Positions 39,325 through 59,993 are shown, counted from the first letter of the stretch. The stretch is 64,000 nucleotides of DNA from a virus (IMGVR_UViG_2921473944_000001:1-64000); one strand, 5' to 3'. Notes: generated by a model not told the origin, from the letters alone. A program made the numbers and translations.

Positions 39325-39349
39325 CATAACAGCCTATGAATATGTCGCG
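39325..39349 (-). promoter_or_regulatory. Phage-specific promoter motif CGCGA-N15-TTATG
   Basis: Plus strand CATAA-N15-TCGCG; 38 nt upstream of ATG 39287. Confidence 0.75.
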
Positions 39350-39404
39350 AGAAACAAGAAGAGTCCTAGATTTTTCTAAGCCCCCTCTCAAATACTGTTA
39401 GATT

Positions 39405-39734
39405 TTAAATCCTTTTAAATATCCATTTTTTGGTTAATTCTTCCATCATACAGATATCGCCTTCACCATAAAAGAAATCAGGCACACGATGCATAAGCTG
39501 CAATGCTTTCTTAGTTGCCACTAAATCTCTTTTTAATACTGATAATTTATCATCAAGTAAATCAAGATCACCATTGATCCTTATAGTCGTCAATGCATCA
39601 TCTAATTTCATGCTTAATGAAAATTTACGCAGTGCCTTATATCGAATCTCTGCAACTCTAGCACGCTCAGCCATTACTAATTCGCGTTCTATCTCTAATT
39701 CCTTAATATGCTGTTCTAAATCTGTTCTTGTCAT
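39405..39734 (-). CDS. Hypothetical coiled-coil protein
   Basis: Own promoter motif and terminator. Confidence 0.6.
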   Translation of the reverse strand: MTRTDLEQHIKELEIERELVMAERARVAEIRYKALRKFSLSMKLDDALTTIRINGDLDLLDDKLSVLKRDLVATKKALQLMHRVPDFFYGEGDICMMEELTKKWIFKRI

Positions 39735-39772
39735 AATGTTACCTCTCTTTCTATTTTAGGGTTTTAATTTCT

Positions 39773-39797
39773 CATAACAGCCTAAGAAAGTATCGCG
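39773..39797 (-). promoter_or_regulatory. Phage-specific promoter motif
   Basis: CATAA-N15-TCGCG upstream of ATG 39734. Confidence 0.75.
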
Positions 39798-39847
39798 AAT
39801 AAAATAAGAGAGCATGTCTAAAATATAGATCAAGCCCTCTTGCTTCG

Positions 39848-40051
39848 TTACTTCTTAAATTTTTCCTTGACACGTTCCTGAATAGTTCCGTCCCATACCC
39901 ATAAATATAGACGATACCAAAACATCGCAAACGTTAGAATTATCTTAATCAGTATAATAATTGGCATTAATATCCATCTAATAATTCTAGCCGTTTGGTC
40001 CAATTTTGCATGATCCTCTCTATTTATAGTTTGTTTTTCGAATCTTTCCAT
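39848..40051 (-). CDS. Hypothetical membrane protein
   Basis: One TM helix; own promoter motif. Confidence 0.6.
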   Translation of the reverse strand: MERFEKQTINREDHAKLDQTARIIRWILMPIIILIKIILTFAMFWYRLYLWVWDGTIQERVKEKFKK

Positions 40052-40085
40052 AACTGTTTCCTTTCAAATCTTAAAATATGTATTC

Positions 40086-40110
40086 CATAACAGCCCATGA
40101 AATAGTCGCG
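40086..40110 (-). promoter_or_regulatory. Phage-specific promoter motif
   Basis: CATAA-N15-TCGCG upstream of ATG 40051. Confidence 0.75.
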
Positions 40111-40118
40111 AGAAACAA

Positions 40119-40367
40119 TCATACAAGTTTTCTGCCGCAGTTCGGACAATATTTAATCGGAATATCAACACGAGCAATACTACCAATACCAGCAAGAGCA
40201 TATAAGTCAGCCTGCAAAATAGGTTCTCTAGCAGTGTCTGTCTCAGTAATATATAATCGCAACCCCAATGCATCGGGAGTATCACCAATACCAATGAAAG
40301 CACCACCGATATCATTAGTCATATCAGGCTTACCATCAATAGTTTCAACTTTACAAAATTCACACAT
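40119..40367 (-). CDS. Zn-binding hypothetical protein
   Basis: MCEFC...IKYCPNCGRKL. Confidence 0.65.
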   Translation of the reverse strand: MCEFCKVETIDGKPDMTNDIGGAFIGIGDTPDALGLRLYITETDTAREPILQADLYALAGIGSIARVDIPIKYCPNCGRKLV

Positions 40368-40467
40368 AATTAATACCTCCTTTAAAATATAGCGGTTCTA
40401 AAAATGAGACAAAAGAAGAGCCTAAGTCAATTAAGACCTAGGACTCCTACCGTGTTAACGATTATTT

Positions 40468-40662
40468 TTAATGCTTCTTTTTAGCAATATGACGGAATTT
40501 GAACTCAATCCCGATATTCATAACACTTGTCATGAATTTACAAGCATCAACGTGCTCCATGCCAAGAAGTTCTAACTTCTTAATACACTTCCCAGCCTCG
40601 AGCTGTAATTCTTGAAAACTCATTTCTCTTGCTTTTACGTCAGTAATTTCTTTCACTTCCAT
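40468..40662 (-). CDS. Hypothetical protein
   Basis: True start MEVKEI after AAGGAGG; the ORF-track extension is promoter sequence. Confidence 0.6.
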   Translation of the reverse strand: MEVKEITDVKAREMSFQELQLEAGKCIKKLELLGMEHVDACKFMTSVMNIGIEFKFRHIAKKKH

Positions 40663-40700
40663 TGTCAATTCCTCCTTATTGAAACGTTTGTTAATCTTTC

Positions 40701-40725
40701 TATAACAGCCCATGTAACATTCGCG
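40701..40725 (-). promoter_or_regulatory. Phage-specific promoter motif
   Basis: TATAA-N15-TCGCG upstream of ATG 40662. Confidence 0.75.
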
Positions 40726-40775
40726 AATAAAAAGAAGAGCCGTCGTATATTTCAACTAAGACTCCTCCATTCCCT

Positions 40776-41180
40776 TTACAGATAAGGTTTAATTTCTCTC
40801 AGATGATTTTGGATTTTTCCTATTTCGTCGAGCTCACTACATAAATCGGCATATCGTTTATCAAGATAGTCTAAATATTCATCCAATTCTTGCTGATCAC
40901 GAACCAAGTTTCTCTTACCTATAAGCATACGATAATCTGGATTTACGTTATTCAATGATGCTGCTGGTATCGCATAACAGAAATTATTTCCGTATAGTGT
41001 GCCAGGAATATCATTAAAATCCCATTCCTTCTTCGTCTCGTTTATAACCAGATAAGCCCTGATCTGTCCGGTGCTAATCCATGCTCTAATTGTCGATTCT
41101 CCGACTCCTAATAAATATGCAGCTTCTTCGATTGTGTAATAGTCTCTCATCATATTTTTACCTCTCTTTCTGAATATCAA
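40776..41180 (-). CDS. HTH (excisionase/MerR-like) DNA-binding protein
   Basis: 'YYTIEEAAYLLGVGESTIRAWISTGQIRA'. Confidence 0.7.
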   Translation of the reverse strand: MIFRKRGKNMMRDYYTIEEAAYLLGVGESTIRAWISTGQIRAYLVINETKKEWDFNDIPGTLYGNNFCYAIPAASLNNVNPDYRMLIGKRNLVRDQQELDEYLDYLDKRYADLCSELDEIGKIQNHLREIKPYL

Positions 41181-41638
41181 TTTTTCTTTTCTGCATAAGA
41201 GAGCCTGTTTCTATCGCGAGGGATAAAAGGATCAGCATCGAAAAATAATAATGACATTGTATGATCACAATAAGCATAGTGACGTACCTCAAACGTAATA
41301 TACAGGTCATCTTTTAATAAAAAGTTTTGCTCAACACATGGTACACACCCGCACGTTCTAATGTGATGACAATGCAATCTAATTCTCTTATCATAGACTG
41401 GTATAACTCTTACACAATATGTGTCATCGTAACATCTATAAGCCGGATAATTAAGTTTCTTAAACACTTCATGCTGTTCCTTATCAATTTTAGCCATATA
41501 ATGATAAAATACTCTATCACCAACAATTCGCTCAGATAGACGATGCTTTGTGATATACGCTTTCATTGTAATTTCTTCACTATTTATAAATTTCATAGTA
41601 TTCATTCCCATACCATACACTCCTTTTAACTTAAACAT
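41177..41638 (-). CDS. Hypothetical protein
   Basis: 153-aa ORF. Confidence 0.55.
   Translation of the reverse strand: MFKLKGVYGMGMNTMKFINSEEITMKAYITKHRLSERIVGDRVFYHYMAKIDKEQHEVFKKLNYPAYRCYDDTYCVRVIPVYDKRIRLHCHHIRTCGCVPCVEQNFLLKDDLYITFEVRHYAYCDHTMSLLFFDADPFIPRDRNRLSYAEKKN
41194..41218 (-). promoter_or_regulatory. Phage-specific promoter motif embedded in the 3' end of the upstream CDS
   Basis: CATAA-N15-TCGCG. Confidence 0.65.
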
Positions 41639-41701
41639 ACAATAAAAAAGAGCCTAAGCCATTTCTGACCTAGACCCTTCTGAATCTGAAAATATCGATG
41701 T

Positions 41702-41773
41702 TTACTTGTTCTTACCACCACGAGTTTCTCTTACTGTCTTTTCACCGTCATAATATACGATTGTGATTTTCAT
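41702..41773 (-). CDS. 23-aa micropeptide MKITIVYYDGEKTVRETRGGKNK
   Basis: Strong RBS GGAGGTGAG, upstream TTGATT...TGaTAGAAT promoter (~41805-41834) and downstream terminator (41640-41682). Confidence 0.55.
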   Translation of the reverse strand: MKITIVYYDGEKTVRETRGGKNK

Positions 41774-41888
41774 ACGTCTCACCTCCATTTAAGTGAAACC
41801 AATTCTATCACAAATATAAATTAAATCAAGTATTGACTTATAAGAACTAGAAAAACAAAAGGGGCAAGTATATCACCCCTCTGAGAAA

Positions 41889-42182
41889 TTACTGATGAAT
41901 ATAAATCTCATAAACATCAAGATTATCATCATTGTAAATATCAACTTCGAATTTCATACCCATACATTCAAATGGATAGTCTTCATATAGTTCCGCGTCA
42001 TTAGGTAGTAATAACGTTGTAGATCCTCCATCAGGAAAACCTATAGTTATACCCCAATTAAGCGGACTTTTAATAAAGTACACTTGAAGCATGAACAGTT
42101 CACCTGTATTGTCGACCTCTAATCCAATATTTACGAAATCACTTTTACGACTCACCTGAATTCCTCTTATATTTTTGTTCAT
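41889..42182 (-). CDS. Hypothetical protein
   Basis: RBS and own promoter motif. Confidence 0.6.
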   Translation of the reverse strand: MNKNIRGIQVSRKSDFVNIGLEVDNTGELFMLQVYFIKSPLNWGITIGFPDGGSTTLLLPNDAELYEDYPFECMGMKFEVDIYNDDNLDVYEIYIHQ

Positions 42183-42205
42183 ATTGAACCCTCCTTTGTT
42201 TTTTT

Positions 42206-42230
42206 CATAACATAGTAGGATTCTATCGCG
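42206..42230 (-). promoter_or_regulatory. Phage-specific promoter motif
   Basis: CATAA-N15-TCGCG upstream of ATG 42182. Confidence 0.75.
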
Positions 42231-42444
42231 ATTTCTAGTAACCTCTGTACTTTAATTATTCAGCCAGTCCTCGAGCATCTTTATAGCAGCATTTTCATAC
42301 ATCTTACAAGTCTCGTTTACTAACTGTTTATTAAACATATCTTTGGTTTTACACTGACCATCTGGATAATCTTCAGGATTGGCTACTTCTATCTCACATC
42401 TCTCGAAAAATGGACAGGTAAGGCATTCATGAAGTCTTCTAAGT

Positions 42445-42831
42445 TCATTCCTGCTCAGGTTCATGTAAATCACCCCTCTGTTCACCCGGATTCAAATATT
42501 CAATATTATCTCCAAAATCAGTAACAGTAATTCCCCAGATCTTAGTCGGAGCGAAAAACTGCTGCAATAGAATCTGAGCCTCATCAACGAGAAGACCTTT
42601 ACGCATAATGTCAGTATTCATAAAAGGTTTATTCTGCTTCATACGGAAGATCTCTTCAACTGAAAACGGTTCCGGAATATCATATCCCATGTCATTTGCC
42701 TGCTTACGAATATAATCAGCCATGCATCGGCTAGGAGCTACGATATAAGCTCCAGTCTCTGCCGACTTCTTAATCAATGTTGCAGTTTTACCTGAACCTC
42801 TAGCCCCTACATAAATATCCATCCTATTCAT
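42445..42831 (-). CDS. Small P-loop NTPase
   Basis: Walker A 'GARGSGKT' and Walker B 'LLVDEAQ'. Confidence 0.7.
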   Translation of the reverse strand: MNRMDIYVGARGSGKTATLIKKSAETGAYIVAPSRCMADYIRKQANDMGYDIPEPFSVEEIFRMKQNKPFMNTDIMRKGLLVDEAQILLQQFFAPTKIWGITVTDFGDNIEYLNPGEQRGDLHEPEQE

Positions 42832-42836
42832 AATAA

Positions 42837-43175
42837 TTACTCCTTTTCTTTATCTCTTAATGTACAAACCAATTCATATATCATCTCTTTAGCTGTAAGG
42901 TCTGTACGAGCTTTCATAACGCCCTTGAAATAATACTCTACGAAAATATCAATAGCTCTTTCTCGATTATCCTCACGAAGCCAAACCATACCATTAAATA
43001 CATCGCCCTCATCGCCACTACACAGATACTTATGTCCATTATGATATGATTTGAAATATGCACGCCCACGAGTACAGTTTGATATAAGACCATATACGTC
43101 ATCAATGTATTCAAGCGTACCTTTCGTAGACTCTAATTTACCTCCAAATATCCAGTATAACCATACTTCATCCAT
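42837..43175 (-). CDS. Hypothetical protein (paralog of 45680..46018)
   Basis: Shared 'G.(V/L)(F/Y)N..VW......AIDIF' motif. Confidence 0.6.
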   Translation of the reverse strand: MDEVWLYWIFGGKLESTKGTLEYIDDVYGLISNCTRGRAYFKSYHNGHKYLCSGDEGDVFNGMVWLREDNRERAIDIFVEYYFKGVMKARTDLTAKEMIYELVCTLRDKEKE

Positions 43176-43177
43176 AT

Positions 43178-43435
43178 CTAACTCTCCTGTGTAGCCCTTA
43201 ATACATGTCCTACATTATCGACATAACACTCGTGCCAAATTGTGATAGGTTTTTCATCACCATCTGTAAGGTCAATCCAAGCTGCCAACACTGTATGATT
43301 AAATCGCATAGTTTCTACAGCTAACAACGCCGAGTCCAACGATAAACAACAGTCGTATGAACTTTCTCGATAAGCAAATCTATTAAAATTATCCTGAATA
43401 ATATAGTTAGTCCAATATCTTTTCATTCTTACCAC
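43178..43435 (-). CDS. Hypothetical protein
   Basis: 85-aa ORF in an operon. Confidence 0.5.
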   Translation of the reverse strand: MVRMKRYWTNYIIQDNFNRFAYRESSYDCCLSLDSALLAVETMRFNHTVLAAWIDLTDGDEKPITIWHECYVDNVGHVLRATQES

Positions 43436-43496
43436 CCTTTCTAAAAGAAAAAAGAGAAGCTAATTAAAGCCTCTCTTAATATTGTTCATCAATCTG

Positions 43497-44606
43497 TTAT
43501 AAACTACCACTTGCGTTTGACAACCATGGGTCAGCACTCGGCAGCTTTGCCGTATATTTTTTCACAAACTCATCTGGTGCAATACGAACCGGACTCTCAA
43601 CAGTATCAACATTAGCTGCATATGTTTCCGACTCGACATCCATCATATCAAATAACCAATCTGTAATAATATCCATAGCCCATGAAATATCAAATGTGCT
43701 ACCAGCAGCTTTTGGATGACCACCGCCTCCGTAATTATGAGCAATTTCAGTACCAAGATTAATATTGTCTCGAATTGTACGATAGCTAACCCTGCCACGT
43801 GAAATATCAATCATAGCAATGTAGGCAAACTCAGGATGTATCTCACACAGACGATTACCGAGCTCACTAAAATACCGTTCAGCAAATATAACACCATATG
43901 TATTACCCCACTGGTCTGTTTTAACTGTAATCTGTCTCTCCTTTTGCTCTACATAAATATCAATGTCTTTCTGTTTCTGTTCAAGTAAGAGTGTATCAGT
44001 TTCTGAGAACCACTCGTCTTGATGTAATGGCGAAGTACCAAACATGATACGCTTCATAGCCAGCTCAATGAATTTATCTCTACCATAAATATGAAAGAGA
44101 TCGTTCATCTGCTTACTAACAAGTCCGTCTTCTCCTAATTCTTTCCAACGCCAAGTATCATAGTCTCGAACTATAGACACGAAACGAGATATTTTATTTT
44201 GAGTTGTCTGATCGTACGTAAGACTTAAACTATTACTCACATATAAATAGAACAATTCAGTACCACTAGTCTTTACAGCATCTAAATATTCATATACAGT
44301 ACACCAAAAGTAGTTATCCAATCTAAGAGCAGTTCCATGATGGTCAAATAAACGTACTGTTCTCTCAACCTTATCTAAACAGTCAATCATACTAGCTACC
44401 TGATCGGAGACCGAAATATCAGTAATGAAAATCGAATCGTAACTCCTGTACAGATCTTCGTTTTCCATGAATGCTTCTACTTTATCATCCACATCGTCAT
44501 AGTTACAATACTCAACATCAACATTCTCTTTACCAAATGCCAAATACGCTAAAACAGCACATCCGATACCGTCAAGATCGATATGTGTGAATATTTTAAT
44601 TTTCAT
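43497..44606 (-). CDS. DHH/DHHA1 phosphoesterase
   Basis: 'THIDLDG', 'ITD', 'DHH', 'DYDTW', 'GGGHPKAAG'. Confidence 0.9.
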   Translation of the reverse strand: MKIKIFTHIDLDGIGCAVLAYLAFGKENVDVEYCNYDDVDDKVEAFMENEDLYRSYDSIFITDISVSDQVASMIDCLDKVERTVRLFDHHGTALRLDNYFWCTVYEYLDAVKTSGTELFYLYVSNSLSLTYDQTTQNKISRFVSIVRDYDTWRWKELGEDGLVSKQMNDLFHIYGRDKFIELAMKRIMFGTSPLHQDEWFSETDTLLLEQKQKDIDIYVEQKERQITVKTDQWGNTYGVIFAERYFSELGNRLCEIHPEFAYIAMIDISRGRVSYRTIRDNINLGTEIAHNYGGGGHPKAAGSTFDISWAMDIITDWLFDMMDVESETYAANVDTVESPVRIAPDEFVKKYTAKLPSADPWLSNASGSL

Positions 44607-44621
44607 AGATTTAAATCTCCT

Positions 44622-44993
44622 TTATTTGTAATATAAGTCACGCTCTTCCAAAGTGTTAAAGTGTGGAGGATTATCGTAACTAGTACTGCCACCCTCGTTT
44701 TTCGTCTTTTTAGGTCTACCTACTTTTTTCTTAGCTGGTTTTGAATCAGCATATGACTCCCGAATATCAGAAACCTCTCTTTGTAATGCCTTGACCGTAT
44801 TGTTAAAATTCTCCCGAATATCTTCATAAGACATCTCCATCCATTCTTTTCTCTGAGCACACTCTTCAGGACTTCCGCATCTCGCATACTGTCTATACTC
44901 AAATAGTAAATTCTCCAATGCCTTCTTTCTTTTTACATCAGACAGACTACTACAAAGTTCTTCTACAATTTCTAATTCTTTTATTGTTAACAT
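44622..44993 (-). CDS. Hypothetical protein with GRP motif
   Basis: 'KKKVGRPKK'. Confidence 0.55.
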   Translation of the reverse strand: MLTIKELEIVEELCSSLSDVKRKKALENLLFEYRQYARCGSPEECAQRKEWMEMSYEDIRENFNNTVKALQREVSDIRESYADSKPAKKKVGRPKKTKNEGGSTSYDNPPHFNTLEERDLYYK

Positions 44994-45014
44994 AATATTA
45001 ATTCTCCTTTTATC

Positions 45015-45524
45015 TTACTTTTTTGATATATATAGATGAATATCTGAGTCGTTTCCAACAGTTTTGAACTTATATACTCTGGATTGTAAAATATCGTCTG
45101 ATAATGCTTCCATAGCAACAATAGCTCTTGCTGAGAAACGACCACATGGCTCATAGACATGAATTGTGATATTCTGCCTCTCATCGAGAATTTTCAAAAC
45201 GTCAATAAGTTTAAAACGACCATTCTCCATCACCTTTTCGTTTTTCTCAATATATTCCTCTACATTTGCAAACACAGCTAATGGGTCTAAATCAGTTTTA
45301 GAATAATACCATAAAACATTATAATAAGGGATTCCTTCCTCAGCCGCACATTTAATCTTCCTGATAGCCGTGCCATCGTCATCAAATAGTTTTAAATAAC
45401 TAGTACCAGGCTCGTAAAAATCACCGTCAAAATATGCCTCTCTATGATATAGAATAGCTTTGTATTCCTTAACTGTAGTTTTGCCACTTCTAACATAAGC
45501 CCATACACTTCCCATACATTTCAT
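45015..45524 (-). CDS. Hypothetical two-module protein
   Basis: N-half resembles the 42837/45680 family; C-half resembles the 47533/47748 family. Confidence 0.55.
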   Translation of the reverse strand: MKCMGSVWAYVRSGKTTVKEYKAILYHREAYFDGDFYEPGTSYLKLFDDDGTAIRKIKCAAEEGIPYYNVLWYYSKTDLDPLAVFANVEEYIEKNEKVMENGRFKLIDVLKILDERQNITIHVYEPCGRFSARAIVAMEALSDDILQSRVYKFKTVGNDSDIHLYISKK

Positions 45525-45679
45525 AATATTAATACCTCCTTACATTTCATAATATATACACCAACATGTAACATATCGTAAGAATCAAAATCATCCAGTA
45601 CTCCCAGTTGAGAATACCATACCCCATATGATTTAATATAAGACCTTCACCTAACATAATCAGTGCGCTAATAATAAGT

Positions 45680-46018
45680 CTAAGAAACTGTCCCATTACT
45701 AATACTCTCCTCTATCAACTGCATTTTCAAAAGGTTCGTAAAAGTAGTCTTTCTTCTCTGCAGTGCTTCTTCCAACTTATTAATCTTCTCATTCTCATCT
45801 TCCATGAAAATATCAATAGCTTTAACCTTGTCTGCTTTTGGGAACCACACATTATGGTTATACAGAACACCTGGCTTCGGATCGCAAGTCAGTACACGAA
45901 GAATCTTTCCATCGTCATTAATAATTCTAAATATAGCCTTATATTTACCCCGTACCTGTAAATCCCCTTCATACTCATAGAGCTTTCCTCTGTAAAAATT
46001 GTATAAATATACTTTCAT
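45680..46018 (-). CDS. Hypothetical protein
   Basis: Paralog of 42837..43175. Confidence 0.6.
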   Translation of the reverse strand: MKVYLYNFYRGKLYEYEGDLQVRGKYKAIFRIINDDGKILRVLTCDPKPGVLYNHNVWFPKADKVKAIDIFMEDENEKINKLEEALQRRKTTFTNLLKMQLIEESISNGTVS

Positions 46019-46163
46019 AAATATCGATCCTCCTCTATATTCTTACACCGCTTCCTGGTACGTTTTGTGAAATACATATGATGTTTCATTCGACAATCTT
46101 TCTTATCCGCGCCATTATGTAAATACGAGTTTCTTGCTTTTCTCTTTTTATTTTCACTTGCCA

Positions 46164-46601
46164 TTAATCATATTCCTCAAGTTCCTCTGCTTTGAATTTA
46201 GACACCGCATCATATATAAGTTTCTTAATAGCTTCATGATTGTCAATAGAAAACCTATCTGGTAATGAAACAGTCCCGTGATATATCTTTTCATCGAAAT
46301 TGCTATAAGATTTAACATTTGTTCTAACCAGGCGACTACTATATATAATTTCACGTGACGTTACACCGATACTATCACGCATACTGAATCTAACACCACG
46401 ATTTATTTTAACATGCGCTAATTCTTTACCATTACAAATAGGATATTCTTCAATACGCATTTCTTCCAAGTCAGCCCCTTGATGCAAACAAACATAACGT
46501 TCAGCGTCTTCCCGATTTATACATATCGTTTCAATATGATAGTCTGAATACTCACCAGCAGTCACTACATATATTTTATCTAACTTATTCATACTGTACA
46601 C
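46164..46601 (-). CDS. Hypothetical protein (DUF7336-like 'IYVVT.GEYSDYHI')
   Basis: N-terminal motif common in phage proteins. Confidence 0.55.
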   Translation of the reverse strand: MYSMNKLDKIYVVTAGEYSDYHIETICINREDAERYVCLHQGADLEEMRIEEYPICNGKELAHVKINRGVRFSMRDSIGVTSREIIYSSRLVRTNVKSYSNFDEKIYHGTVSLPDRFSIDNHEAIKKLIYDAVSKFKAEELEEYD

Positions 46602-47957: not shown

Positions 47958-48032
47958 AATTATTTCTCCTCCTTATACTTTCATTACAAAAATAAAAGAG
48001 CCTAAGTCAATCAAGACCTAAGCCCCATCGGT

Positions 48033-48413: not shown

Positions 48414-48449
48414 AATTCATTACTCCTTTCGTGACTACAAATCTTTTAC

Positions 48450-48474
48450 CATAACAGAATATGATTTATTCGCG
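48450..48474 (-). promoter_or_regulatory. Phage-specific promoter motif
   Basis: CATAA-N15-TCGCG upstream of ATG 48413. Confidence 0.75.
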
Positions 48475-49418: not shown

Positions 49419-49640
49419 TTAGAGTCTCACCTCGCGCATCTGCTTAGCGATTTTTAATTTGCGTCGCCTTTCTTTTTCGATTTTTACCTGAATCTGATAT
49501 ACTTTATATGATACAAACATAATGACAAATTCCATGACCATAATATCTTTCGGTACATCAATGCCAAATAAGCATAATATAAGTCCTAATATCATAAGCA
49601 CCATCATTGCCATTGTTGTTATATCCATTAATTTTTTCAT
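49419..49640 (-). CDS. Hypothetical membrane protein
   Basis: Start MKKLMD after GGAGG; two hydrophobic segments. Confidence 0.6.
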   Translation of the reverse strand: MKKLMDITTMAMMVLMILGLILCLFGIDVPKDIMVMEFVIMFVSYKVYQIQVKIEKERRRKLKIAKQMREVRL

Positions 49641-49663
49641 AATCAATACCTCCTTAATCTTTC

Positions 49664-49688
49664 TATAACAGCCCAAGAAAGATTCGCG
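49664..49688 (-). promoter_or_regulatory. Phage-specific promoter motif
   Basis: TATAA-N15-TCGCG upstream of ATG 49640. Confidence 0.75.
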
Positions 49689-49758
49689 AATTAATGTGCC
49701 TATTTTCAGCTTTCGCATTTACTGTATACACAATAAATATAAAAAGAAGAGCCTAACA

Positions 49759-49991: not shown

Positions 49992-50016
49992 TATAAGAGG
50001 ACCAGAATATATCGCG
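49992..50016 (-). promoter_or_regulatory. Phage-specific promoter motif
   Basis: TATAA-N15-TCGCG upstream of ATG 49965. Confidence 0.75.
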
Positions 50017-50712: not shown

Positions 50713-50720
50713 ATGCACGT

Positions 50721-50888
50721 CTACCTCAACACTTTTGAAATATCACCATCTCGTATTGTTATAGTATCCCAATCAGGTCCTGGTAGTTCAACATCAATTA
50801 AATATGCTACCCCAGGTTCTAATATTTCAACTACAACACCGTGACGTCCGTCTTTTAGAATTACTTTATCATATAATTTTACAATCAT
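50721..50888 (-). CDS. Putative cognate immunity protein (DUF4926-like), 55 aa, absent from the ORF track
   Basis: MIVKLYDKVILKDGRHGVVVEILEPGVAYLIDVELPGPDWDTITIRDGDISKVLR; ATGA overlap with the toxin stop; RBS GAGGTG. Confidence 0.7.
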   Translation of the reverse strand: MIVKLYDKVILKDGRHGVVVEILEPGVAYLIDVELPGPDWDTITIRDGDISKVLR

Positions 50889-51862
50889 TTCGACACCTCT
50901 TTCTTTGTTACATAAGCACTCGTTAATTTTACACTAGCTCCGTTCTTTTCTTGAATCCAAGCAGTGCATACGTTTGCCGTTTTTCCATTTGGACCGTTTA
51001 AATTCATCACCTGCTGATACCGCATTCCATACCCGTCATCACCTTTTTCTTCCAATTTACGTGAATCGAAATTATCAGAAATATTAGCCATGAGATCTTT
51101 ATAATTATCTAATGTATATCCTAAAGCCACCTCGAACGCGTGTGCTTTGTCTGGTGCTTTATTTGGATTCAAAGCATATTGTGTAAACTTTTCTTCTGCC
51201 ATATTGACCCTTTTAATTTTAGTGATCCTATCCGACGAACTATTTGTGTTTAAAATCACCTCATTATGATCAATAGGATAAGGTGGTCCGTTCTTTACAC
51301 CCCACTTCATTCCTTTTACACCACTATGCTCGATATCTTTGTCGTTGTCAAGTTCATTTAACACTTTTCTAATATTCTCCAAAATAAACTCAACAGACTT
51401 TCTGGTCTTTCTGCTCAATTTCATATATGGACCATTTTTATCATACCAGTCAAATATCTCATACAAATTTTCAGATCGCCAACTGAATGACCACCAATCA
51501 CAAATCATTTCGAGAATATAGTTTTCTGGCATATCTATGATCGTCTCAGCTTCGTCCGGATCGTCATGATTCAGAATCCAATACTGCCAGTGATGAGGGT
51601 TACGATGAATATGAAGCAGCCAAGCATATTCATAATCCTGAATAACCTGATATGATCTATTCTTACCATAGAAATATTCATCATACGGCTCGTACTCATC
51701 TTCATTATTTTTACTACGATCATGATCAAAACAAATCTGCTGCGTTAATCTCAACTCCTGATCGACTGGCACAAGAGAAGGTATTCTATCATGAATGAAC
51801 TTAAACGCTTTCTTCACGCCATCTCTATGATCCTGCAAATATAAATCATACTCTCTGCTCAT
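50885..51862 (-). CDS. DUF5662 (HD-like) domain - internal HSGVKGMKWG tag - DUF6883-like (BECR-fold) RNase toxin fusion
   Basis: N-part: 'HDRSK...WLLHIHRNPHHWQYW...EMICDW'. Tag at H179. C-part: 'KFTQYALNP..APDKA.AF..ALGY...YG.RY...GPNGKTA.V.TAWI...LTSAYV'. Confidence 0.7.
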   Translation of the reverse strand: MSREYDLYLQDHRDGVKKAFKFIHDRIPSLVPVDQELRLTQQICFDHDRSKNNEDEYEPYDEYFYGKNRSYQVIQDYEYAWLLHIHRNPHHWQYWILNHDDPDEAETIIDMPENYILEMICDWWSFSWRSENLYEIFDWYDKNGPYMKLSRKTRKSVEFILENIRKVLNELDNDKDIEHSGVKGMKWGVKNGPPYPIDHNEVILNTNSSSDRITKIKRVNMAEEKFTQYALNPNKAPDKAHAFEVALGYTLDNYKDLMANISDNFDSRKLEEKGDDGYGMRYQQVMNLNGPNGKTANVCTAWIQEKNGASVKLTSAYVTKKEVSK

Positions 51863-52962: not shown

Positions 52963-52974
52963 CGTTCCCCTCTT

Positions 52975-53250
52975 CTAATCGAATTCGTAGTCTTCTGATT
53001 CATTTTGGTAAATCATGATCTTGATTGGCTTGCCATTGCTACCGTCACTCTCAATGTGAATGATACCATTGAATTGCAAATAGTTATTGCCATCCGGATC
53101 GACCATTGTAAGACTCCCATCTTCTCTTTTATCTGACACTGAAATATTAATCGGCTCCAATGATTCTGCTTTCTTTTCACTTCCACTGCAGCCTGCCAAT
53201 CCAAGCGTAGCTGTAAATATAAATAATCCTGCTATAAACTTAGTCTTCAT
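52975..53250 (-). CDS. Small lipoprotein
   Basis: Signal peptide with lipobox LAG-C. Confidence 0.7.
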   Translation of the reverse strand: MKTKFIAGLFIFTATLGLAGCSGSEKKAESLEPINISVSDKREDGSLTMVDPDGNNYLQFNGIIHIESDGSNGKPIKIMIYQNESEDYEFD

Positions 53251-53400
53251 TCTCCTACTCCCTTTAAACATTTGATATAATATCAGTACGGTCTTCAAAA
53301 GTTAAATATCAATCCTATAACCTACTTTTTAAAATAAAAGAGAAAAGACCCAGCTAAATTTAGCCGAGCCCTTACTCTAATTAGCGACTATAATCAAATA

Positions 53401-53589
53401 TCAATCACCCGTATAGTTCCACAAGTTTCCATAAAATTCTCGTGCTCCCTTATATTAGTCGTCGGTAATCAATCCATCATCCCTCGCTTTACCGAAAGCT
53501 TCTGCAAACGACATCTGCACAGGATAAGGATTATACATACCTTCGAATTTGTTATAAAGCTCGTTCCATTCCATTCTTGTCTTTGTCAT
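53401..53589 (-). pseudogene. Small gene with premature in-frame TAA (53455-53457)
   Basis: MTKTRMEWNELY...ITDD-TAA-YKGAREFYGNLWNYTGD*; has its own RBS, promoter motif and terminator. Confidence 0.6.
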
Positions 53590-53616
53590 ACTTTTAATCT
53601 CCTTTCTTACTATTAG

Positions 53617-53641
53617 TCATAAAGGAACAGTTTTTATCGCG
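53617..53641 (-). promoter_or_regulatory. Phage-specific promoter motif (1-nt variant)
   Basis: CATAA-N14-TCGCG; near-identical to 54255-54279. Confidence 0.6.
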
Positions 53642-53709
53642 TAAAAAGAAAAAGACCCAGATGTCACTCTGAGTCCATCCTCTTAATTATTTATAATATC
53701 CAATAAGTT

Positions 53710-53877
53710 TCAACAAGTTTCAAACATATCTATTACCTGCCTATGTGTTAAGTACCCATAATAAGCACATATTTTATAAACGAAATCAGATCGTCTATTA
53801 AATTCTGTCATATCATAATGATACTTTATCGCATTTAAACTATATAAATAGCTTTTAACTTCTTGCATTGCTATCAT
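53710..53877 (-). CDS. Hypothetical 55-aa protein, absent from the ORF track
   Basis: ATG 53877 with RBS GGGGTG; own promoter motif and terminator. Confidence 0.55.
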   Translation of the reverse strand: MIAMQEVKSYLYSLNAIKYHYDMTEFNRRSDFVYKICAYYGYLTHRQVIDMFETC

Positions 53878-53893
53878 ATAAATCACCCCTTTC

Positions 53894-53918
53894 TATAATA
53901 GGAGCTGTAATGTTCGCG
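53894..53918 (-). promoter_or_regulatory. Phage-specific promoter motif
   Basis: TATAA-N15-TCGCG. Confidence 0.75.
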
Positions 53919-53941
53919 TAGAAAGAGGAAAGACCCAGACG

Positions 53942-54238
53942 TTACTCTGAGTCTTTTAGTATTTCGATGATGTTTTCTAGGTCCACAATTTCTTGCTTCA
54001 TCCGTTCTAACTGCACTTCTAGCGAATGTAATTTAGTGTTCAAGTCTAAGTTATCGCCACACGATTTCTTATATTTGGGATGTTCGTTCATGAATATATT
54101 CAAATTATACTCCTGAATAATATACCCATCTTTTTTAGAATTCTTGTCTGCTTTAAGCGCCCCATTTCTACACCATCTTCGTACTTGCTCTTCCGTTACA
54201 TTTAGAAAACACGCAATATCTTTTACTTTGTAAACCAT
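53942..54238 (-). CDS. HTH (excisionase-like) protein with C-terminal coiled coil
   Basis: 'YKVKDIACFLNVTEEQVRRWCRNGALKA'. Confidence 0.75.
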   Translation of the reverse strand: MVYKVKDIACFLNVTEEQVRRWCRNGALKADKNSKKDGYIIQEYNLNIFMNEHPKYKKSCGDNLDLNTKLHSLEVQLERMKQEIVDLENIIEILKDSE

Positions 54239-54254
54239 AAAATATCACTCCTTT

Positions 54255-54279
54255 CATTAAAGGAACAGTTTTTATCGCG
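54255..54279 (-). promoter_or_regulatory. Phage-specific promoter motif
   Basis: CATTA-N15-TCGCG. Confidence 0.7.
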
Positions 54280-54300
54280 TAGAAAGAAAAGGTCTAGTTA

Positions 54301-54510
54301 TTAGACCAGTTCTTCCAATTGTTTAATTGCCCTCTCATACCGTCTGGTGAACTCACCAAATGTGAGAGTATCAGCCTCCGTATTAATAAGCTCATAATAC
54401 TCGAGAGCGTCCTCTGCGAACGAGATAATATCTAATACCCGATCATCACAGTGTTCAGCCAACTCTCTGTACTCACGACTTATTTTCTCTACGTCTTCAA
54501 TACTTAACAT
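54301..54510 (-). CDS. Hypothetical acidic protein
   Basis: Own promoter motif and terminator. Confidence 0.6.
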   Translation of the reverse strand: MLSIEDVEKISREYRELAEHCDDRVLDIISFAEDALEYYELINTEADTLTFGEFTRRYERAIKQLEELV

Positions 54511-54528
54511 AATAGTTCACCTTCCTTT

Positions 54529-54553
54529 CATAATAGGAGTTGTAATGTTCGCG
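54529..54553 (-). promoter_or_regulatory. Phage-specific promoter motif
   Basis: CATAA-N15-TCGCG. Confidence 0.75.
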
Positions 54554-54554
54554 T

Positions 54555-54746
54555 CTACTTCAGTTCATTAGTTTTCTTAATGCATTTAGCCGCATTCTTA
54601 CAAATATGATAGTGCTCACAACTTACTCGAATATCCTTAACCTCGTTGGACAAAAATACATTGCATTCAGCGATGACCGGTTTAATCTTAGTACAGTGAT
54701 CACAAACCCCTTCCAGAAAGCATCCGTCGAGTTTAATATTAGTCAT
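54555..54746 (-). CDS. Small Cys-rich protein
   Basis: CxxC...CEH...C. Confidence 0.5.
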   Translation of the reverse strand: MTNIKLDGCFLEGVCDHCTKIKPVIAECNVFLSNEVKDIRVSCEHYHICKNAAKCIKKTNELK

Positions 54747-55491
54747 TTGGTTTCTCCTCTCCTATAATCAATTCAGAATATGGCAGTGACTCAATCCACT
54801 TACAGAACTCGCACCATTCATCCAACTTATGATTCTTCCTGCTGTAATACATATTAGCCAGAACCTCATAGTTTAACATAACATTACGAGTCTGGTTATA
54901 GCTGCTCGGAAGAAGCTGAATCATCTGCCACCAGCATTCTTTTTTAGTCGGAATGTAAGTGTCGTTCCAACCACTGTTAGCAAAGTATAAATTTCGTTCC
55001 CCGTCTGATTTACAGTTGAAAGCATCTCTCCAGAAATTTAATTCGCGAATACTTTCATTGAATAATTTCATTGTGCTTTTTGTTAAATGATCACAACTAA
55101 AATCATCTACTGTAAACTCTTTCGCCTGAATCTTATGCATAGTACTGCAAGAGTTCGCAACAGTACCAACCTTATACGTATCAAATTCTTTCCACCAATA
55201 TAACGGCGCCGTAATTCTCACATACACCGGCATCATCCTCATGAACTTTCTATGATCTGTACCCGCTTTTGCTAACCGCTGCATGAGCGAGTGGTCGTTT
55301 TCGCCTAATACATATCTTTGAGTATTACCACACCATTCAGGGCTAAATGCACAATGACCTGAACACAAACCGGAATCGCAACCATAACCACTGTTGCTCT
55401 TCTCCCAGCTATTCATCGGATTACGCATTCCTTCAATAATAAATTCCATCTGCTCCGGACTTGCCAGAACTACATTTTCTAATTTAATCAT
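54739..55491 (-). CDS. ThyX-like (flavin-dependent thymidylate synthase-like) protein
   Basis: 'DHRKFMR...VRITAP...WKEFDTYK...NSCSTMH...QLLPSSYNQTR..MLNYE.L...R..HKL.EW..FC' follows the ThyX fold but the signature is divergent. Confidence 0.65.
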   Translation of the reverse strand: MIKLENVVLASPEQMEFIIEGMRNPMNSWEKSNSGYGCDSGLCSGHCAFSPEWCGNTQRYVLGENDHSLMQRLAKAGTDHRKFMRMMPVYVRITAPLYWWKEFDTYKVGTVANSCSTMHKIQAKEFTVDDFSCDHLTKSTMKLFNESIRELNFWRDAFNCKSDGERNLYFANSGWNDTYIPTKKECWWQMIQLLPSSYNQTRNVMLNYEVLANMYYSRKNHKLDEWCEFCKWIESLPYSELIIGEEKPND

Positions 55492-56605
55492 TCACAATAT
55501 CCTCCAAGTTCAATGTTTACGATTTCATCAGCATCGATTTCCAAAATTTCCACTTCAATATCAGACATATCATCAACAATAGTCATCCACCCTCTTGCAA
55601 TTTCTTTTTTGTAGAGTTCCTTGATTATTAAATCTTTAGCTGCTTCTGCTGTATCTTTTTTCGTATAAATACCAAAAATATTTTCGATATGACCATAACC
55701 ATCATAATAAGTGTTTCCGTGAACCACATATAACATCATTAATCTTCATCCTCCATTTTCTTTTTCAGTTCATTACGTGCATATGTACATGCCGAATCAT
55801 TTTCGCAGCAAATAATAGTATCGTGTTCTGGAAAAGTCGTATAACCTTTATCAGAAATATAGGGTTTAAAATAACGACAATTTTGACAATATGGTTCAAC
55901 AATCACCCTAATCATCTATCTCATTGCCTCCAATACAATTTCTTTCTTACATTGAGGACAATTTATGTACGTACTGCCTTTCGCGATACCAGGAAATCCA
56001 CCTGTATGAACTGTTGTCTTAGCTCTAATATCCTCTTCCTCAAAAGAAAATAAGCAGCCACAATAATCACAACGCTTCTCCTGTCTCGTCCCTGGTTTAA
56101 TAATTTTAATCATCTCTTTTATTCCCTTTCTTTAAACGCTTCCGCTATTCTCTCAAGATTCTTAAATAAGTTCTCGAAGGAATCACGTTTCGTATCAAAG
56201 CAATATAGCTCCGATTTGTCTTTTGTTTGATCGTCTGTAAAACTAAAATATAAATCACAACCCAGTGGCGCTCTTGTCATACATAACCTAAGACCATGCG
56301 CGATGGCAACCGATTCAAATTGACTTAAGAAATCATAAACATCCATTTTGCATTCCTCCTTTATTTTTTTCTAATAATTGGTGAGATGTCTCCCACCAAT
56401 TAATAACGGGTGCCATAACGGCTGCTTCAAAATCAGCTTTAAAGTAATCTATCTCATCGTCGCTTATGGCATGTGTAAAAATTGGACCATACCCTAAACC
56501 ATAATTAACGTCGTAAATTCGTATTCTCCACATACCACAAGGCATACAAAGATGCTCTAATGTAAAAATCAAATTGCTATGTTTTTCAAAAAACTCTTTA
56601 ATCAT
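55488..56605 (-). CDS. Cluster of small hypothetical genes (55488..55739, ~55740..55907, 55916..56113 Zn-ribbon, 56119..56346, 56333..56605)
   Basis: Consecutive, coupled minus-strand ORFs. Confidence 0.5.
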
Positions 56606-56669
56606 TTTCTACTCCTTTCTAAAAATAAAAGAGAGCCTTAGCCGAATATAGCCAAGACCCTCTGTCCTG

Positions 56670-56891
56670 TTAAAAACCAATTTCTTTATATCCTTGAATA
56701 AATGCTACTGCCATTTCACGATTACGCCACATCTCCTTTCTAATCAGCTCATTATAGCGAAGAGTCTCGTTAGCGTCATTTAACATTTTTTCATCTCCTG
56801 TTAATTTAGCCGCTACCTTAGCCCCCTCTAAAAAACGGTTGATCTCTTTTAGTTTTTTGTAAGCTTTAATACGTTCAAACATAAGTATCAT
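56670..56891 (-). CDS. Hypothetical protein
   Basis: Own promoter motif and terminator. Confidence 0.6.
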   Translation of the reverse strand: MILMFERIKAYKKLKEINRFLEGAKVAAKLTGDEKMLNDANETLRYNELIRKEMWRNREMAVAFIQGYKEIGF

Positions 56892-56910
56892 CTCCTCCTT
56901 TTGGTTTTCT

Positions 56911-56935
56911 CATTAGAGGCTTTGTTTTAATCGCG
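56911..56935 (-). promoter_or_regulatory. Phage-specific promoter motif
   Basis: CATTA-N15-TCGCG. Confidence 0.7.
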
Positions 56936-56937
56936 AA

Positions 56938-57921
56938 TTATTGTTCAAGAAGAATACTATCCAGTAAACGTTTCATAGCATTGGTGACATACGCATCTTT
57001 ATCTACCATATTATCAAGCTCTTCATAAGGAAATACGTGTCTTAAGCATCTACCACTACTGTGATCAAATATACGGACACCAGTAGACTTTAAATCATCA
57101 TAACGATCAAAACTAATAGAAACACCATACTTTCTGCACAGTTCTATAATCTCTAACATAAACATCATTCCCCCAAATCGATATACTCTAATGAATCGAC
57201 ATACTCTTGACTCCAGAACCAATTAGTAAATGGACTCTTACTCCAGTATTTTGCCGAATATACAATTTTATTCCAGTTATAAGCCTTCTCTATAACTTTT
57301 GATCTCGTATTATCTTCATATTCACTATTAACACATTCTATCTGTTTAATAATAGACTCGCGTTGCATATGTGCTTTGTAAATAGATACATCGACTCCAG
57401 TATGTCCTATAATAATAACTACAACTACAATGAATGTTGCAAGTCCGCCTAATAACATACAGACAAGGCCACCAACGTCAAGATCGTAATACTTACAGCT
57501 ATCCTCAAACTTATAATGCAAAATAGCACCAGCAATCGTTACAAATATACATAACAAAGTTATAACCATTTATTCTGTCTCCTTTACAATTCCTAAAAAT
57601 CTTACAGTCTCATCTCTAAGACACACCCAGTATCTCTTTCCTTTATATACAACTTCATCACCGTCATAGTTATAATCCTTGTCCGGCTCGGAAGCATATG
57701 CTAATATCATTACTTTCGTAGTATTATTCATCTTTCCAATTCTCCTTATCAATAAACGGCTCGATTCTTTTGTAAACGTCACGCGGTACAAGATTCTTAT
57801 ACCCCCAGTCAAATAGGTTAAATAACGTCTTATAATATGATTCGATACATTCATAACCGATACGCTTGTTACACTGATCTTCCAGCATAGCTGCATAGTC
57901 ATGTTTGGCTATTGCATTCAA
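56938..57921 (-). CDS. Hypothetical genes (56938..57222, 57165..57569 membrane, ~57570..57731, 57724..57921)
   Basis: Consecutive ORFs; 57165..57569 has two TM helices. Confidence 0.5.
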
Positions 57922-58018
57922 TATAATTATATGATTTTATAGGTGTTATTGTTTTTTAAATATAAAATAACCGGTGCTATTAATATAAATATGTTAATAA
58001 ATATCATCTCTATCCCCC

Positions 58019-58627
58019 TTATGCTGACAGAAGGTCTTTAATACCCTCAAGTAATTCCTCTTTGTCATCTTTGGCTTTCTTATCCTTCTCAACCGCTACA
58101 TCTAACGCTTCTTTTGCTTTAAGAACTTTATCTTTGTTTGTAAACAACGTGTCAATAGCTTCGTACTTAGCTACAGCGTCATCACGTTTCTTGTCAGCCG
58201 CCTCAATTTTCTTAAGGCACTCCTCGCGGATACGATTAATCTCTTCCTTACACTCAAGACGAACACGAACTACTTCTGCCTCCGCGTTACTCTTAACTCT
58301 CTCGGCATCACGACATACATCGTCATTTGCTTTAGCCACACGATCTGCATGAAATTTAGCGAATGTCTCCTGATCCATTTCTTTAAGTCTCTGAGAATAT
58401 GCAGTCTTAGCTTCTGCATCAGCCTTAGCCAATTCCTCACGCATTTTAATATCTTTAATACGTTCTTCTTCAGCAATGCGATTAAGCTTAGTCTGATGAA
58501 TCTTCTTCTCTTCCTTACGCTCAATATGTCCAGCTGCCCAGTAACATCCCGCCCCTCCAGTAAATACTGCACTGCCTACTACCATCATCCATTTTCCGAT
58601 TTCTTTAATTTTAGCTGTGTTCATCAT
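58019..58627 (-). CDS. Membrane-anchored coiled-coil protein
   Basis: N-terminal hydrophobic helix, then a long charged helix. Confidence 0.65.
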   Translation of the reverse strand: MMNTAKIKEIGKWMMVVGSAVFTGGAGCYWAAGHIERKEEKKIHQTKLNRIAEEERIKDIKMREELAKADAEAKTAYSQRLKEMDQETFAKFHADRVAKANDDVCRDAERVKSNAEAEVVRVRLECKEEINRIREECLKKIEAADKKRDDAVAKYEAIDTLFTNKDKVLKAKEALDVAVEKDKKAKDDKEELLEGIKDLLSA

Positions 58628-58633
58628 AATCTG

Positions 58634-59137
58634 TTATCTCCTTTTCACCCCATTATTTTTGAGAATAGTTTCAAGATCGTGAATAATTTCCTGCTGATGA
58701 TTCACAATTCCAATAAGCTCGTTTACTTTAATAACAAGCATTTTGTCGGTATGCCCATATTCATCAGCTACATACCATTCTTTGTTTAAGCGTTTTACTT
58801 TTCGTTTATTAGCCATGGCTCCTCCTTTCTACGCTTGAGAAATAAAAGAGAGTCTTAGCCAAATATAGCCAAGACCCTCTGTCCTGTTACTTATGAAACT
58901 TTACTCCTCTTCTTTGGAGTTTTCTGGTTCACCCCATTCATATCGACCACTTTTCTTTTTTGGCTCGTCATCATCTGAGAGTTTATCGACTGTATGATCT
59001 AAAACCACGCCAACTGCCGCACACACAAACATGTCGACAGCCTTAGCTACTGCTTTACCCATACACAACCCAAAACCTACAGCAAACGCCGCTTTTCTTA
59101 ATCCTTTTGTGTTCAATACTACATCGTATTTCTCCAT
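58634..59137 (-). CDS. Two hypothetical genes (58634..58816, 58901..59137)
   Basis: RBSs present; separated by a terminator. Confidence 0.55.
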
Positions 59138-59163
59138 AATTGTTCTCCTTTCAAAATAAATTT

Positions 59164-59993
59164 CTAAGTATCCATAACAGCCCTTGTATTTTTCGCGTAG
59201 AAATAATAATCAACGTACTCTTTAGCAATATCAAGATACTCGCTAGGATAACATCCAAGATTACCAGTAAATACCCCAGCGTCGATTTTCCAGTTTGATC
59301 TATATAGACCAAGTTGCTCCCATTTAGATAAATATGAATGACTCTCAGACTCTGGGATTGAATCCTGTACCAGGTCGATAACTTCTCGTACAGTCCATAA
59401 ATCACATAATACGAACTTTATACACATTCTGAAAAATGTCTTTTCTTTATCGGTCATAATACTCACCTCACTTTATAACAATTTTGTGCTTTCCTGATGA
59501 ATTTCTTAATACCTTTAATCCGGCTGATTTAATATCTCCGATCTGCTCATTGTAGCTAATAATCTGACGCGTACAACCATGTATATAATTAGCGTACATT
59601 TTATCGAGATATTCTTCATACTCAGCTTTTCGCGAATAAATCTCCATCTTCAAGCTATCTTTAAACGCATTGGTAGATTTATATGCATCCATATAATCAG
59701 TTAACATATCAATAAAATTATTCATAATATATATCTCCTTATTTTCTAACTATTCTTAGTTTGCAATAGTCCTGATCGTTATCGGTGTAAACAACTTTAT
59801 ACCTATCATATAGTCCTCTATATATCAGATATTTATATATAGCATCAAGCAGACCATTTTCATTACTTTCATACGATCCACCTATATCAGCACCATGTCG
59901 TACGGCTTGCTCTAAAATATCATTAATCAAATCTATCTCTGTATCGAATGAATTTAATGGTGTAGGTACTAACTTTTCATACTCTTCTGACAT
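59164..59993 (-). CDS. Three hypothetical genes (59164..59466, 59468..59725, 59739..59993)
   Basis: Consecutive ORFs downstream of the helicase. Confidence 0.55.
59173..59197 (-). promoter_or_regulatory. Phage-specific promoter motif embedded in the 3' end of the upstream CDS
   Basis: CATAA-N15-TCGCG upstream of ATG 59137. Confidence 0.75.

Follow-up and report, generated by a model that had tools for sequence, protein, structure and literature searches.

A Repeated Directional Motif as the Probable Promoter of a Two-Barrel Phage RNA Polymerase

Introduction

The viral sequence IMGVR_UViG_2921473944_000001 carries a short directional motif, CGCGA-N15-TWATR, which recurs in front of its genes. 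The first 64,000 nucleotides (the window) were analyzed together with the whole record of 79,953 bp and with relatives of the phage. We propose that the motif is probably the cognate promoter of the two-barrel RNA polymerase (RNAP) encoded by the same phage, and that transcription would start at its final purine. The cognate-promoter reading was already put forward in a first-pass annotation of the window. It stands in part, as the signal precedes genes, co-occurs with the polymerase whichever of the two is used for the search, and is nearly absent elsewhere in host chromosomes; the supposed restriction to the accessory region does not hold.

A very large group of phages has a two-barrel polymerase fused to helix-turn-helix (HTH) domains as its signature gene; the group spans gut Clostridia prophages (Oengusvirus), 1706-like phages of Lactococcus and hundreds of phages of Arthrobacter, Gordonia, Streptomyces and Rhodococcus. 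The protein was named as a putative polymerase and as the signature gene of a supercluster comprising actinophages, Lactococcus 1706-like phages and FP_oengus (10.1101/842583). In the literature searched, no promoter is described for this family, and the protein appears only as "putative polymerase" (10.1101/842583). A distant relative, YonO of SPbeta, was shown to synthesise RNA on a DNA template, and its promoter was explicitly left open (PMC5467207). Because cultured phages exist (FP_oengus and the SEA-PHAGES isolates), the promoter question can be approached with a 25-bp consensus in which the start base is predicted. If the proposal is true, the genomes could be annotated into transcription units, the switching-on of abundant gut prophages would be explained, and an orthogonal polymerase-promoter pair for Gram-positive hosts would be possible.

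The Motif and Its Copies

Fourteen exact matches to CGCGA-N15-TWATR were found in the window, all on the minus strand, against 0.42 expected from shuffled sequence, where the highest count was three. Positions outside the search pattern are constant as well, namely C12 (14 of 14), C18 (13 of 14) and T19 (14 of 14), and alignment of the copies gave the refined motif CGCGA-N6-C-N5-CT-N-TTAT-R, followed by A/G-rich bases. Together with a genuine variant having an N14 spacer at 53617, the window holds 15 copies, the same 15 as were listed in the first-pass annotation. A weaker copy suggested at 60335 had to be given up: it lies inside the helicase open reading frame (ORF), lacks the extra conserved bases and falls below the cut-off score of 8 used for scanning the record with a position weight matrix (PWM). 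In the whole record there are 22 copies between 78,690 and 39,325, every one of them on the coding (minus) strand; the plus strand has none, in agreement with the common orientation and fixed spacing noted before.

For every copy, the distance from the last motif base to a start codon is 16–40 nt, and a Shine-Dalgarno (SD) sequence is present in between. The position of some copies in the last codons of upstream genes was borne out by five overlaps; another six start 1–2 nt past the stop codon of the preceding gene. A hairpin with a T-run abuts about seven or eight of the 22 strong copies. In the window, where CGCGA lies at the high coordinate and TTATG at the low coordinate of each copy, such a hairpin is located directly upstream of the copies at 39325–39349 (PWM score 35.8) and 39773–39797 (41.7), and upstream of those at 40701–40725 (45.5) and 53617–53641, the latter being the variant with the spacer one base shorter. 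The copies at 41194–41218 (29.8) and 59173–59197 (40.7) are within the final codons of the upstream ORF, and the one at 48450–48474 (33.0) overlaps the end of the upstream ORF. The SD sequence directly follows the final base at 53894–53918 (36.3), 54255–54279 (30.5) and 54529–54553 (34.3). Further copies are found at 40086–40110 (38.5), 49664–49688 (42.8), 49992–50016 (35.8) and 56911–56935 (33.6), and a weaker one, with A instead of C at position 18, at 42206–42230 (16.1). All of them are on the minus strand.

The motif extends beyond the accessory region, contrary to what had been thought. Copies also precede replication genes as far as 78.7 kb, and a degenerate copy stands before the polymerase operon, while the structural region has no copy except one intragenic match. 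The element is directional, non-palindromic, devoid of internal pairing and about 25–30 bp long. Evidently, the motif is real, strand-specific, fixed in its geometry and phage-specific.

The stretch 49640–49693, which comprises the copy at 49664, its leader and its SD sequence, is near-identical over about 50 nt to 68253–68306 of the record, outside the window, where the corresponding copy is at 68277. This suggests a recent duplication or recombination at the promoter junctions. One can regard the motif as a recombination element (a PeSL-like cassette junction), or as an RNA processing or translation element, and not mainly as a promoter; the near-identity of the two junctions including the leader, the location of copies at cassette borders and the strong divergence of the early regions among relatives would all suit it. 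We consider this reading very improbable. The best-conserved copy occupies a site upstream of the polymerase operon that is not shuffled, one copy precedes a tRNA gene, the element cannot pair internally, and about one copy in three lies next to a terminator-like hairpin and T-run, where a new start is necessary. Recombination as a side-effect is compatible with the promoter reading.

Co-Occurrence with the Polymerase

Loci of polymerase relatives were scanned with a PWM built from the sites of this phage. In 59 IMG/VR loci, whose polymerases share 42–99% identity with the one studied here, 124 forward and no reverse matches were obtained. Nearly every locus has a copy about 0.95–1.25 kb upstream of the polymerase gene, or about 1.8 kb in two subclades. 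For 80 loci from bacterial genomes and metagenome-assembled genomes, mostly Lachnospiraceae and Oscillospiraceae, the counts were 167 forward and one reverse, and 75 of the 80 had a match. Many of the relatives are prophages. FP_oengus, a cultured temperate phage of Faecalibacterium, contains 14 copies, all of them forward and none in the late genes, and the top dyad found there de novo is CGCGA-N15-TTATG. Five complete relatives have 2–12 co-oriented copies each, one of which is located about 930–1000 nt upstream of the polymerase.

In the present phage, the corresponding site, about 1.1 kb ahead of the polymerase gene, is occupied by the degenerate copy (34941–34965, minus strand; PWM score 13.4), in which CGTCA replaces CGCGA and the downstream half is perfect. 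A tRNA-Met gene begins about 95 nt downstream of it. The degenerate copy is identical in four of five relatives at 98–99% identity, and more distant relatives have a full-strength copy at the same site.

The reverse test was made with a 17-base version of the motif, which was scanned over IMG/VR and gave 50 records selected by the motif alone. The polymerase is encoded in 43 of these, among them every one of the 18 with a completeness of at least 90%; the remaining seven records are fragments. Host chromosomes were represented by five isolate genomes of 2.7–5.7 Mb (Hungatella hathewayi, [Ruminococcus] torques, Cuneatibacter caecimuris, Blautia faecis and Lachnospira hominis). Out of 26 matches, 25 are gathered in a small number of co-oriented clusters, which for the most part lie at the known polymerase locus or beside it (all but two of the clusters were checked for a polymerase gene), and the reversed-pattern control gave zero. 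This clustering and the empty control indicate that the motif is phage-specific and not a class of host promoter.

The idea that the motif travels with the late module, which came from MT835495 ('Bacteriophage sp.'), has been withdrawn, as this scaffold is truncated and contains apparent host DNA, so that the early region is simply missing. It begins inside the phage at the HTH gene, and from about 38 kb onward it has long ORFs on both strands like a bacterial chromosome; the entry seems to consist of one half of a prophage and flanking host DNA.

The Polymerase

The gene at 30676–33816 (minus strand) encodes a protein of 1046 residues, which matches PHROG 4291 and has sigma-70 region-4-like and other HTH matches near both ends. 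Both HTH regions are largely conserved. The sequence SGADFDGD is kept in 19 aligned relatives (44–83% identity) save for one DYDGD variant, and also in the Lactococcus and actinophage homologues. A sequence-profile search against the PDB returned HTH matches only, and a fold search was therefore needed. The AlphaFold2 model (mean predicted local distance difference test score, 74) gave QDE-1, plant RDR2 and gp64/gp62, the non-virion polymerases of Thermus phages P23-45/P74-26, as the best Foldseek matches (E 1e-6 to 1e-5, probability 1.0), with Rpb1 of Pol II coming next. The low TM-scores of 0.2–0.36 restrict the match to the core. According to this model, the protein is a single-chain two-barrel RNAP of the YonO/QDE-1 kind, for which RNA synthesis is a prediction. 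It would be the simplest reader of the motif, because it is the only transcription protein common to all these phages and has two largely conserved HTH domains.

YonO offers a close parallel in organization: it, too, is a two-barrel RNAP made of a single chain, it belongs to a siphophage of Firmicutes and is encoded just ahead of the structural genes, and it was shown to be a DNA-dependent RNAP which transcribes phage genes from a dedicated start (PMC5467207). The relation in sequence is only distant, however, and SPbeta was not among the tblastn matches. Moreover, YonO transcribes the late operon only, from one start, and the yonN-yonK gap, in which that start is located, is without the motif. 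A direct link to the mapped YonO start was tried and rejected, as neither this gap nor the 30 kb of SPbeta around it contains the motif. The polymerase studied here further differs from other phage polymerases in a conserved N-terminal segment which is not seen in them.

Start Site and Relation to Host Promoters

In promoters of the sigma-70 type, the A at −11 is near-invariant owing to its role in melting. When T19–T24 of the motif are read as a −10 element, only 25% of the 269 distinct instances have A at −11; when T22–N27 are read in this way, −7 is mostly A. No TTGACA-like hexamer was found at the −35 distance, where a T-rich tract or a terminator tail lies instead, and CGCGA would sit inside the sigma-A spacer. 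On the coding strand of the whole record, eight modest sigma-A-like sites were detected, most of them intragenic and none scoring above 10.5 of 13.5; the other strand has 18. Judged by these features, the motif is not a sigma-A promoter, and the earlier remark that it does not resemble a sigma70 site is upheld by the missing −35 hexamer as well as by the composition at −11.

A canonical sigma-A site does occur in the genome. The EcsC-family gene at 26108–26800 is the only sizeable gene on the opposite (plus) strand, and TTGGTA-17-TGnTATAAT, a canonical sigma-A promoter with an extended −10, is located at its start (26091–26119). The site suggests that the host uses the ordinary sigma-A consensus. 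The EcsC-family gene is probably a moron expressed by host RNAP.

Where transcription would start can be read from what follows the motif. Among the 176 instances with a recognisable SD sequence, this sequence begins 0–1 nt past the last G in 48, and no start codon is closer than 9 nt to the last G. In FP_oengus, a tRNA gene (ARAGORN; Rfam 47.9 bits) follows one of the copies at a distance of 2 nt. Because an SD sequence or a tRNA so often begins 0–2 nt after it, we infer that the start site is the final purine, usually G, which gives a T7-type geometry with a contiguous block ending at +1. Positions 25–31, which would correspond to +1 to +7, are almost free of pyrimidines. A start 6–8 nt past a −10 would delete those SD sequences and land inside the tRNA of FP_oengus.

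These data bear on the possibility that the host RNAP is redirected by a phage factor, either sigma-like or an appropriator in the style of T4 MotA/AsiA, with the factor on the CGCG box and sigma-A on TnTWAT as a degenerate −10. The downstream half is indeed TATAAT-like, and a perfect TATAAT is present in four of six actinophage sites and in three of four core sites in Lactococcus phages (see below). The CGCG box lies roughly at the position of a MotA box, several conserved early proteins have no assigned function, and a copy before the polymerase operon would pose no bootstrapping problem. Nevertheless, the A equivalent to −11 is found in only a quarter of the instances, and a start 6–8 nt downstream would cut the SD sequence in about a quarter of them as well as fall within the FP_oengus tRNA. 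In a MotA-type test, the position of the box was compatible, but TAnnnT was absent in about 75% of the instances. Pfam detected no sigma-like domain in six early proteins tested among those common to FP_oengus; MotA/AsiA-like proteins were sought only by those Pfam scans. Furthermore, the spacing is identical in Firmicutes and Actinobacteria phages despite their differing early genes. A redirected host RNAP is, on balance, unlikely.

The directionality of the motif bears on a second alternative, in which it is an operator bound by a phage DNA-binding protein over weak host promoters. The protein could be the XRE-type HTH protein (35541–35969), which is encoded beside an iteron array, or the HTH of the polymerase acting as a regulator. 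The model for this is SPbeta, where a 15-bp element repeated in promoter regions is bound by the recombinase-like master repressor MrpR (PMC10516654), and such an operator would suit the many relatives that are prophages. Both the SPbeta element (SPBRE) and the present motif are short and recur between genes, in promoter regions, in large siphophages or prophages of Firmicutes. SPBRE is a repressor site at about ten promoters of host RNAP, whereas the motif here is longer, directional, ends at a likely start and follows the polymerase gene across phyla. An operator would also not account for a strictly directional, non-palindromic element of about 25–30 bp with a purine-rich 3′ flank and a fixed place before an SD sequence or a tRNA. 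No sigma-A promoters accompany the motif, and the XRE protein is weakly conserved (43% over 69 residues in MT835495) while the motif is near-invariant. We regard an operator function as quite improbable. A reading as the SPBRE/MrpR operator was rejected, as it fits neither the directionality of the motif nor its position at the likely start site.

The cognate-promoter reading, in turn, finds its closest likeness in the promoters of T7, T3 and SP6. Like the motif in our proposal, these consist of one contiguous directional element of about 23–25 bp which ends at the start purine and whose upstream part is read as duplex. Similarly, a T/A-rich part precedes +1 (TTAT|G, with the proposed start, here and TATA|G in T7 and SP6), and the sequence that follows is purine-rich. 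T7-type promoters likewise occur in many copies per phage genome and not in the host, and are tied to a phage-encoded polymerase. The enzymes differ: the polymerase here has two double-psi beta-barrels with GADFDGD and fused HTHs, not a Pol I-like right hand. The placement differs too, as the motif is found in the early and replication regions and before the polymerase gene, not in the structural region.

Conservation across Two Phyla

The gene order VRR-Nuc, Cas4, polymerase and small ORF is kept in phages of Arthrobacter, Streptomyces, Gordonia and Rhodococcus. In six actinophages, an equivalent motif layout was recognized about 75–105 nt upstream of the VRR-Nuc gene, first by eye and then by a regular expression derived from the gut phages. 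This expression, CGC-N8-CA-N5-T-N-TWAT-R, has exactly one match, at the syntenic site only, in each of Arthrobacter phages Egad and KeaneyLin and Rhodococcus phage ReqiPoco6, for a chance expectation of 0.003–0.02 per locus. The sites of Tanis, GirlPower and Scap1 deviate by one or two bases. A purine-rich, AGAAGGGA-like stretch follows all six actinophage sites. The Lactococcus phages 1706 and P162 have two sites each of a core, CA-N4-CT-A-TAAT-R plus purines, on the forward strand only and without the CGC box. Since the relaxed pattern forms were picked after viewing the sequences, only the three exact matches constitute an unbiased test. When the final 15 kb of P162, Scap1 and Egad were searched for dyads de novo, no abundant motif came up, and the PWM of the present phage gives low scores for these phages. 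By this comparison of loci, the motif is co-inherited with the polymerase across two phyla.

Proposed Mechanism and Its Difficulties

In the mechanism that we propose, the promoter would be a contiguous element of about 25 bp, with the CGCG(A) box at about −24 to −20, CA at −13/−12 and C-T-n-T-T-A-T at −7 to −1. One or both of the fused HTH domains may read the upstream part as duplex, and initiation would take place at the final purine, usually G, and run into the purine-only stretch. The 22 promoters would drive early, accessory and replication genes, in some cases as short units closed by a terminator-like hairpin. The weakened copy would drive the operon of tRNA-Met, VRR-Nuc, Cas4 exonuclease and polymerase, and this operon, located just ahead of the structural genes, may read into them. 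As the structural region is free of the motif apart from the one intragenic match, late genes would depend on read-through out of the polymerase operon or on another signal.

Several observations weigh against this proposal. A motif copy before the polymerase's own operon creates a chicken-and-egg situation, unless an injected enzyme or host read-through does the priming. Temperate members such as FP_oengus cannot use an injected enzyme at induction, where host transcription is needed as the primer. The phages that bear the motif form one lineage, and co-occurrence could reflect common descent together with another conserved factor, for which the DUF6353 paralogues and PHROGs 4079, 4695 and 4678 are candidates. 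In the actinophages and Lactococcus phages, the downstream half is TATAAT, which is also a perfect sigma-A −10. The pairing of the HTH1 helix with the CGCG box is uneven in the Lactococcus phages: P162 lacks both, while 1706 keeps the helix and neither of its core sites has CGC. Finally, the YonO-dependent promoter region of SPbeta, searched in the yonN-yonK gap and the 30 kb around it, shows no such motif.

The first of these difficulties would be solved if the polymerase enters with the DNA as a virion protein. Delivery of the enzyme together with DNA, followed by host-independent reading of phage-specific early promoters, is known for P23-45 (PMC10770324), for gp66 of the crAss-like phage phi14:2 and for the N4 vRNAP. 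The P23-45/P74-26 proteins gp64/gp62 are among the best structural matches to the polymerase here, and the homologue in 1706 (orf75) was annotated as 'structural protein' by the depositors, as were two other genes outside the morphogenesis block. Three pointers, namely the orf75 annotation, a conserved disordered N-terminus and its resemblance to a DUF7211-like tag, point to virion delivery. The N-terminal segment HYG..SGRYPWGSG is common to all homologues and is disordered in the AlphaFold2 model. In contrast to the P23-45 type, packaging is here a prediction, and the tape measure has no polymerase domain joined to it; a second polymerase fused in this way, as in P23-45, was not found. Only a single polymerase gene and a single promoter class were detected here.

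We tentatively put forward, as a possibility with less than even prospects, that the polymerase is packed via HYG..SGRYPWGSG and injected. Transcription would then be independent of the host from the first minute and served by one promoter class, and the copy before the operon would be self-amplifying and, after joining of the cos ends, would supply the structural genes as well. If this holds true, the polymerase and its promoter, whose core is kept from gut Clostridia phages to actinophages, would represent a compact host-independent system with a fold unrelated to T7 that could be used across Gram-positive phyla. It would also give a first promoter rule for YonO-like polymerases.

Some further proteins carry a comparable tag. 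At 24950–28434 (minus strand), four consecutive proteins, encoded between connector and terminase, start with ...EELYHHGVKGMKWGVRK (Pfam DUF7211) and continue into unrelated basic bodies. Their tag, HHGVKGMKWG, is loosely similar to the N-terminal segment of the polymerase, and a fifth copy is found inside a DUF5662/DUF6883 protein (50885–51862, minus strand). The tag looks like a targeting or cleavage signal for packaged cargo. Alignment of the polymerase N-terminus with it by hhalign gave a weak match of only 10 columns at a probability of 12%, and the similarity is suggestive at most. Literature searches on the tag motif and on recent YonO work returned nothing.

Genome Layout and Neighboring Features

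The main genes all run from 79,953 to 1, and only one sizeable gene of the window is on the opposite strand. The early end begins with small genes including three DUF6353 paralogues, followed by a primase-polymerase, a single-strand annealing protein and the helicase. After the helicase come about 25 kb of small ORFs, a non-coding iteron region of 410 nt, the XRE-type HTH gene and an HNH gene. These are followed by the operon of tRNA-Met (34774–34845, minus strand; Rfam tRNA 65.5 bits), the VRR-Nuc-type endonuclease and Cas4/PD-(D/E)XK exonuclease (33819–34752, minus strand), which are the conserved upstream neighbors of the polymerase, and the polymerase itself. Past it, there are an ORF of 90 residues, a gap of 800 nt, and the genes for terminase, portal, protease-capsid, tape measure and fibres. 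Neither a lysis gene nor an integrase was identified in a search of the record that left out most small ORFs, and relatives with 98–99% polymerase identity reach 84–92 kb. The record of 79,953 bp is therefore probably incomplete.

An ORF of 62 residues at 34739–34927 overlaps the tRNA-Met gene and is thus doubtful. FP_oengus likewise has a tRNA-Met, in addition to an odd tRNA with a short anticodon loop.

In the non-coding region at 35970–36380 (410 nt), TTTTTTGTAAACATT(T/A)ATTC occurs five or six times in direct orientation and once inverted. The region sits exactly at the switch of GC and AT skew, beside the XRE-type HTH gene. Syntenic arrays with different repeats are present in Egad (CTGCCCACTTTTG) and P162 (CCCGGATTTT), and 1706 has AACTTCGGGA just upstream of the polymerase gene. 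The array is a candidate for a replication origin or a regulator-binding array.

The gap at 29600–30400, between the polymerase module and a terS-like ORF, holds several G+C-rich hairpins, one of which has a T-run (about 29,830–29,860), and a perfect 18-bp inverted repeat, TTACAACATTTAATAGAG, with a distance of about 120 nt between its arms. The cos ends of relatives are found directly after the small ORF that follows the polymerase, which is the place of this gap.

The three DUF6353 paralogues, of 260, 259 and 307 residues, are encoded at 74636–79498 of the record, at the start of the early region, and also occur in FP_oengus. At the other end, the tail fibre proteins encoded at 8–3304 and 3315–4004 (minus strand) contain collagen-like triple-helix repeats, and the record ends seven bases beyond the fibre gene.

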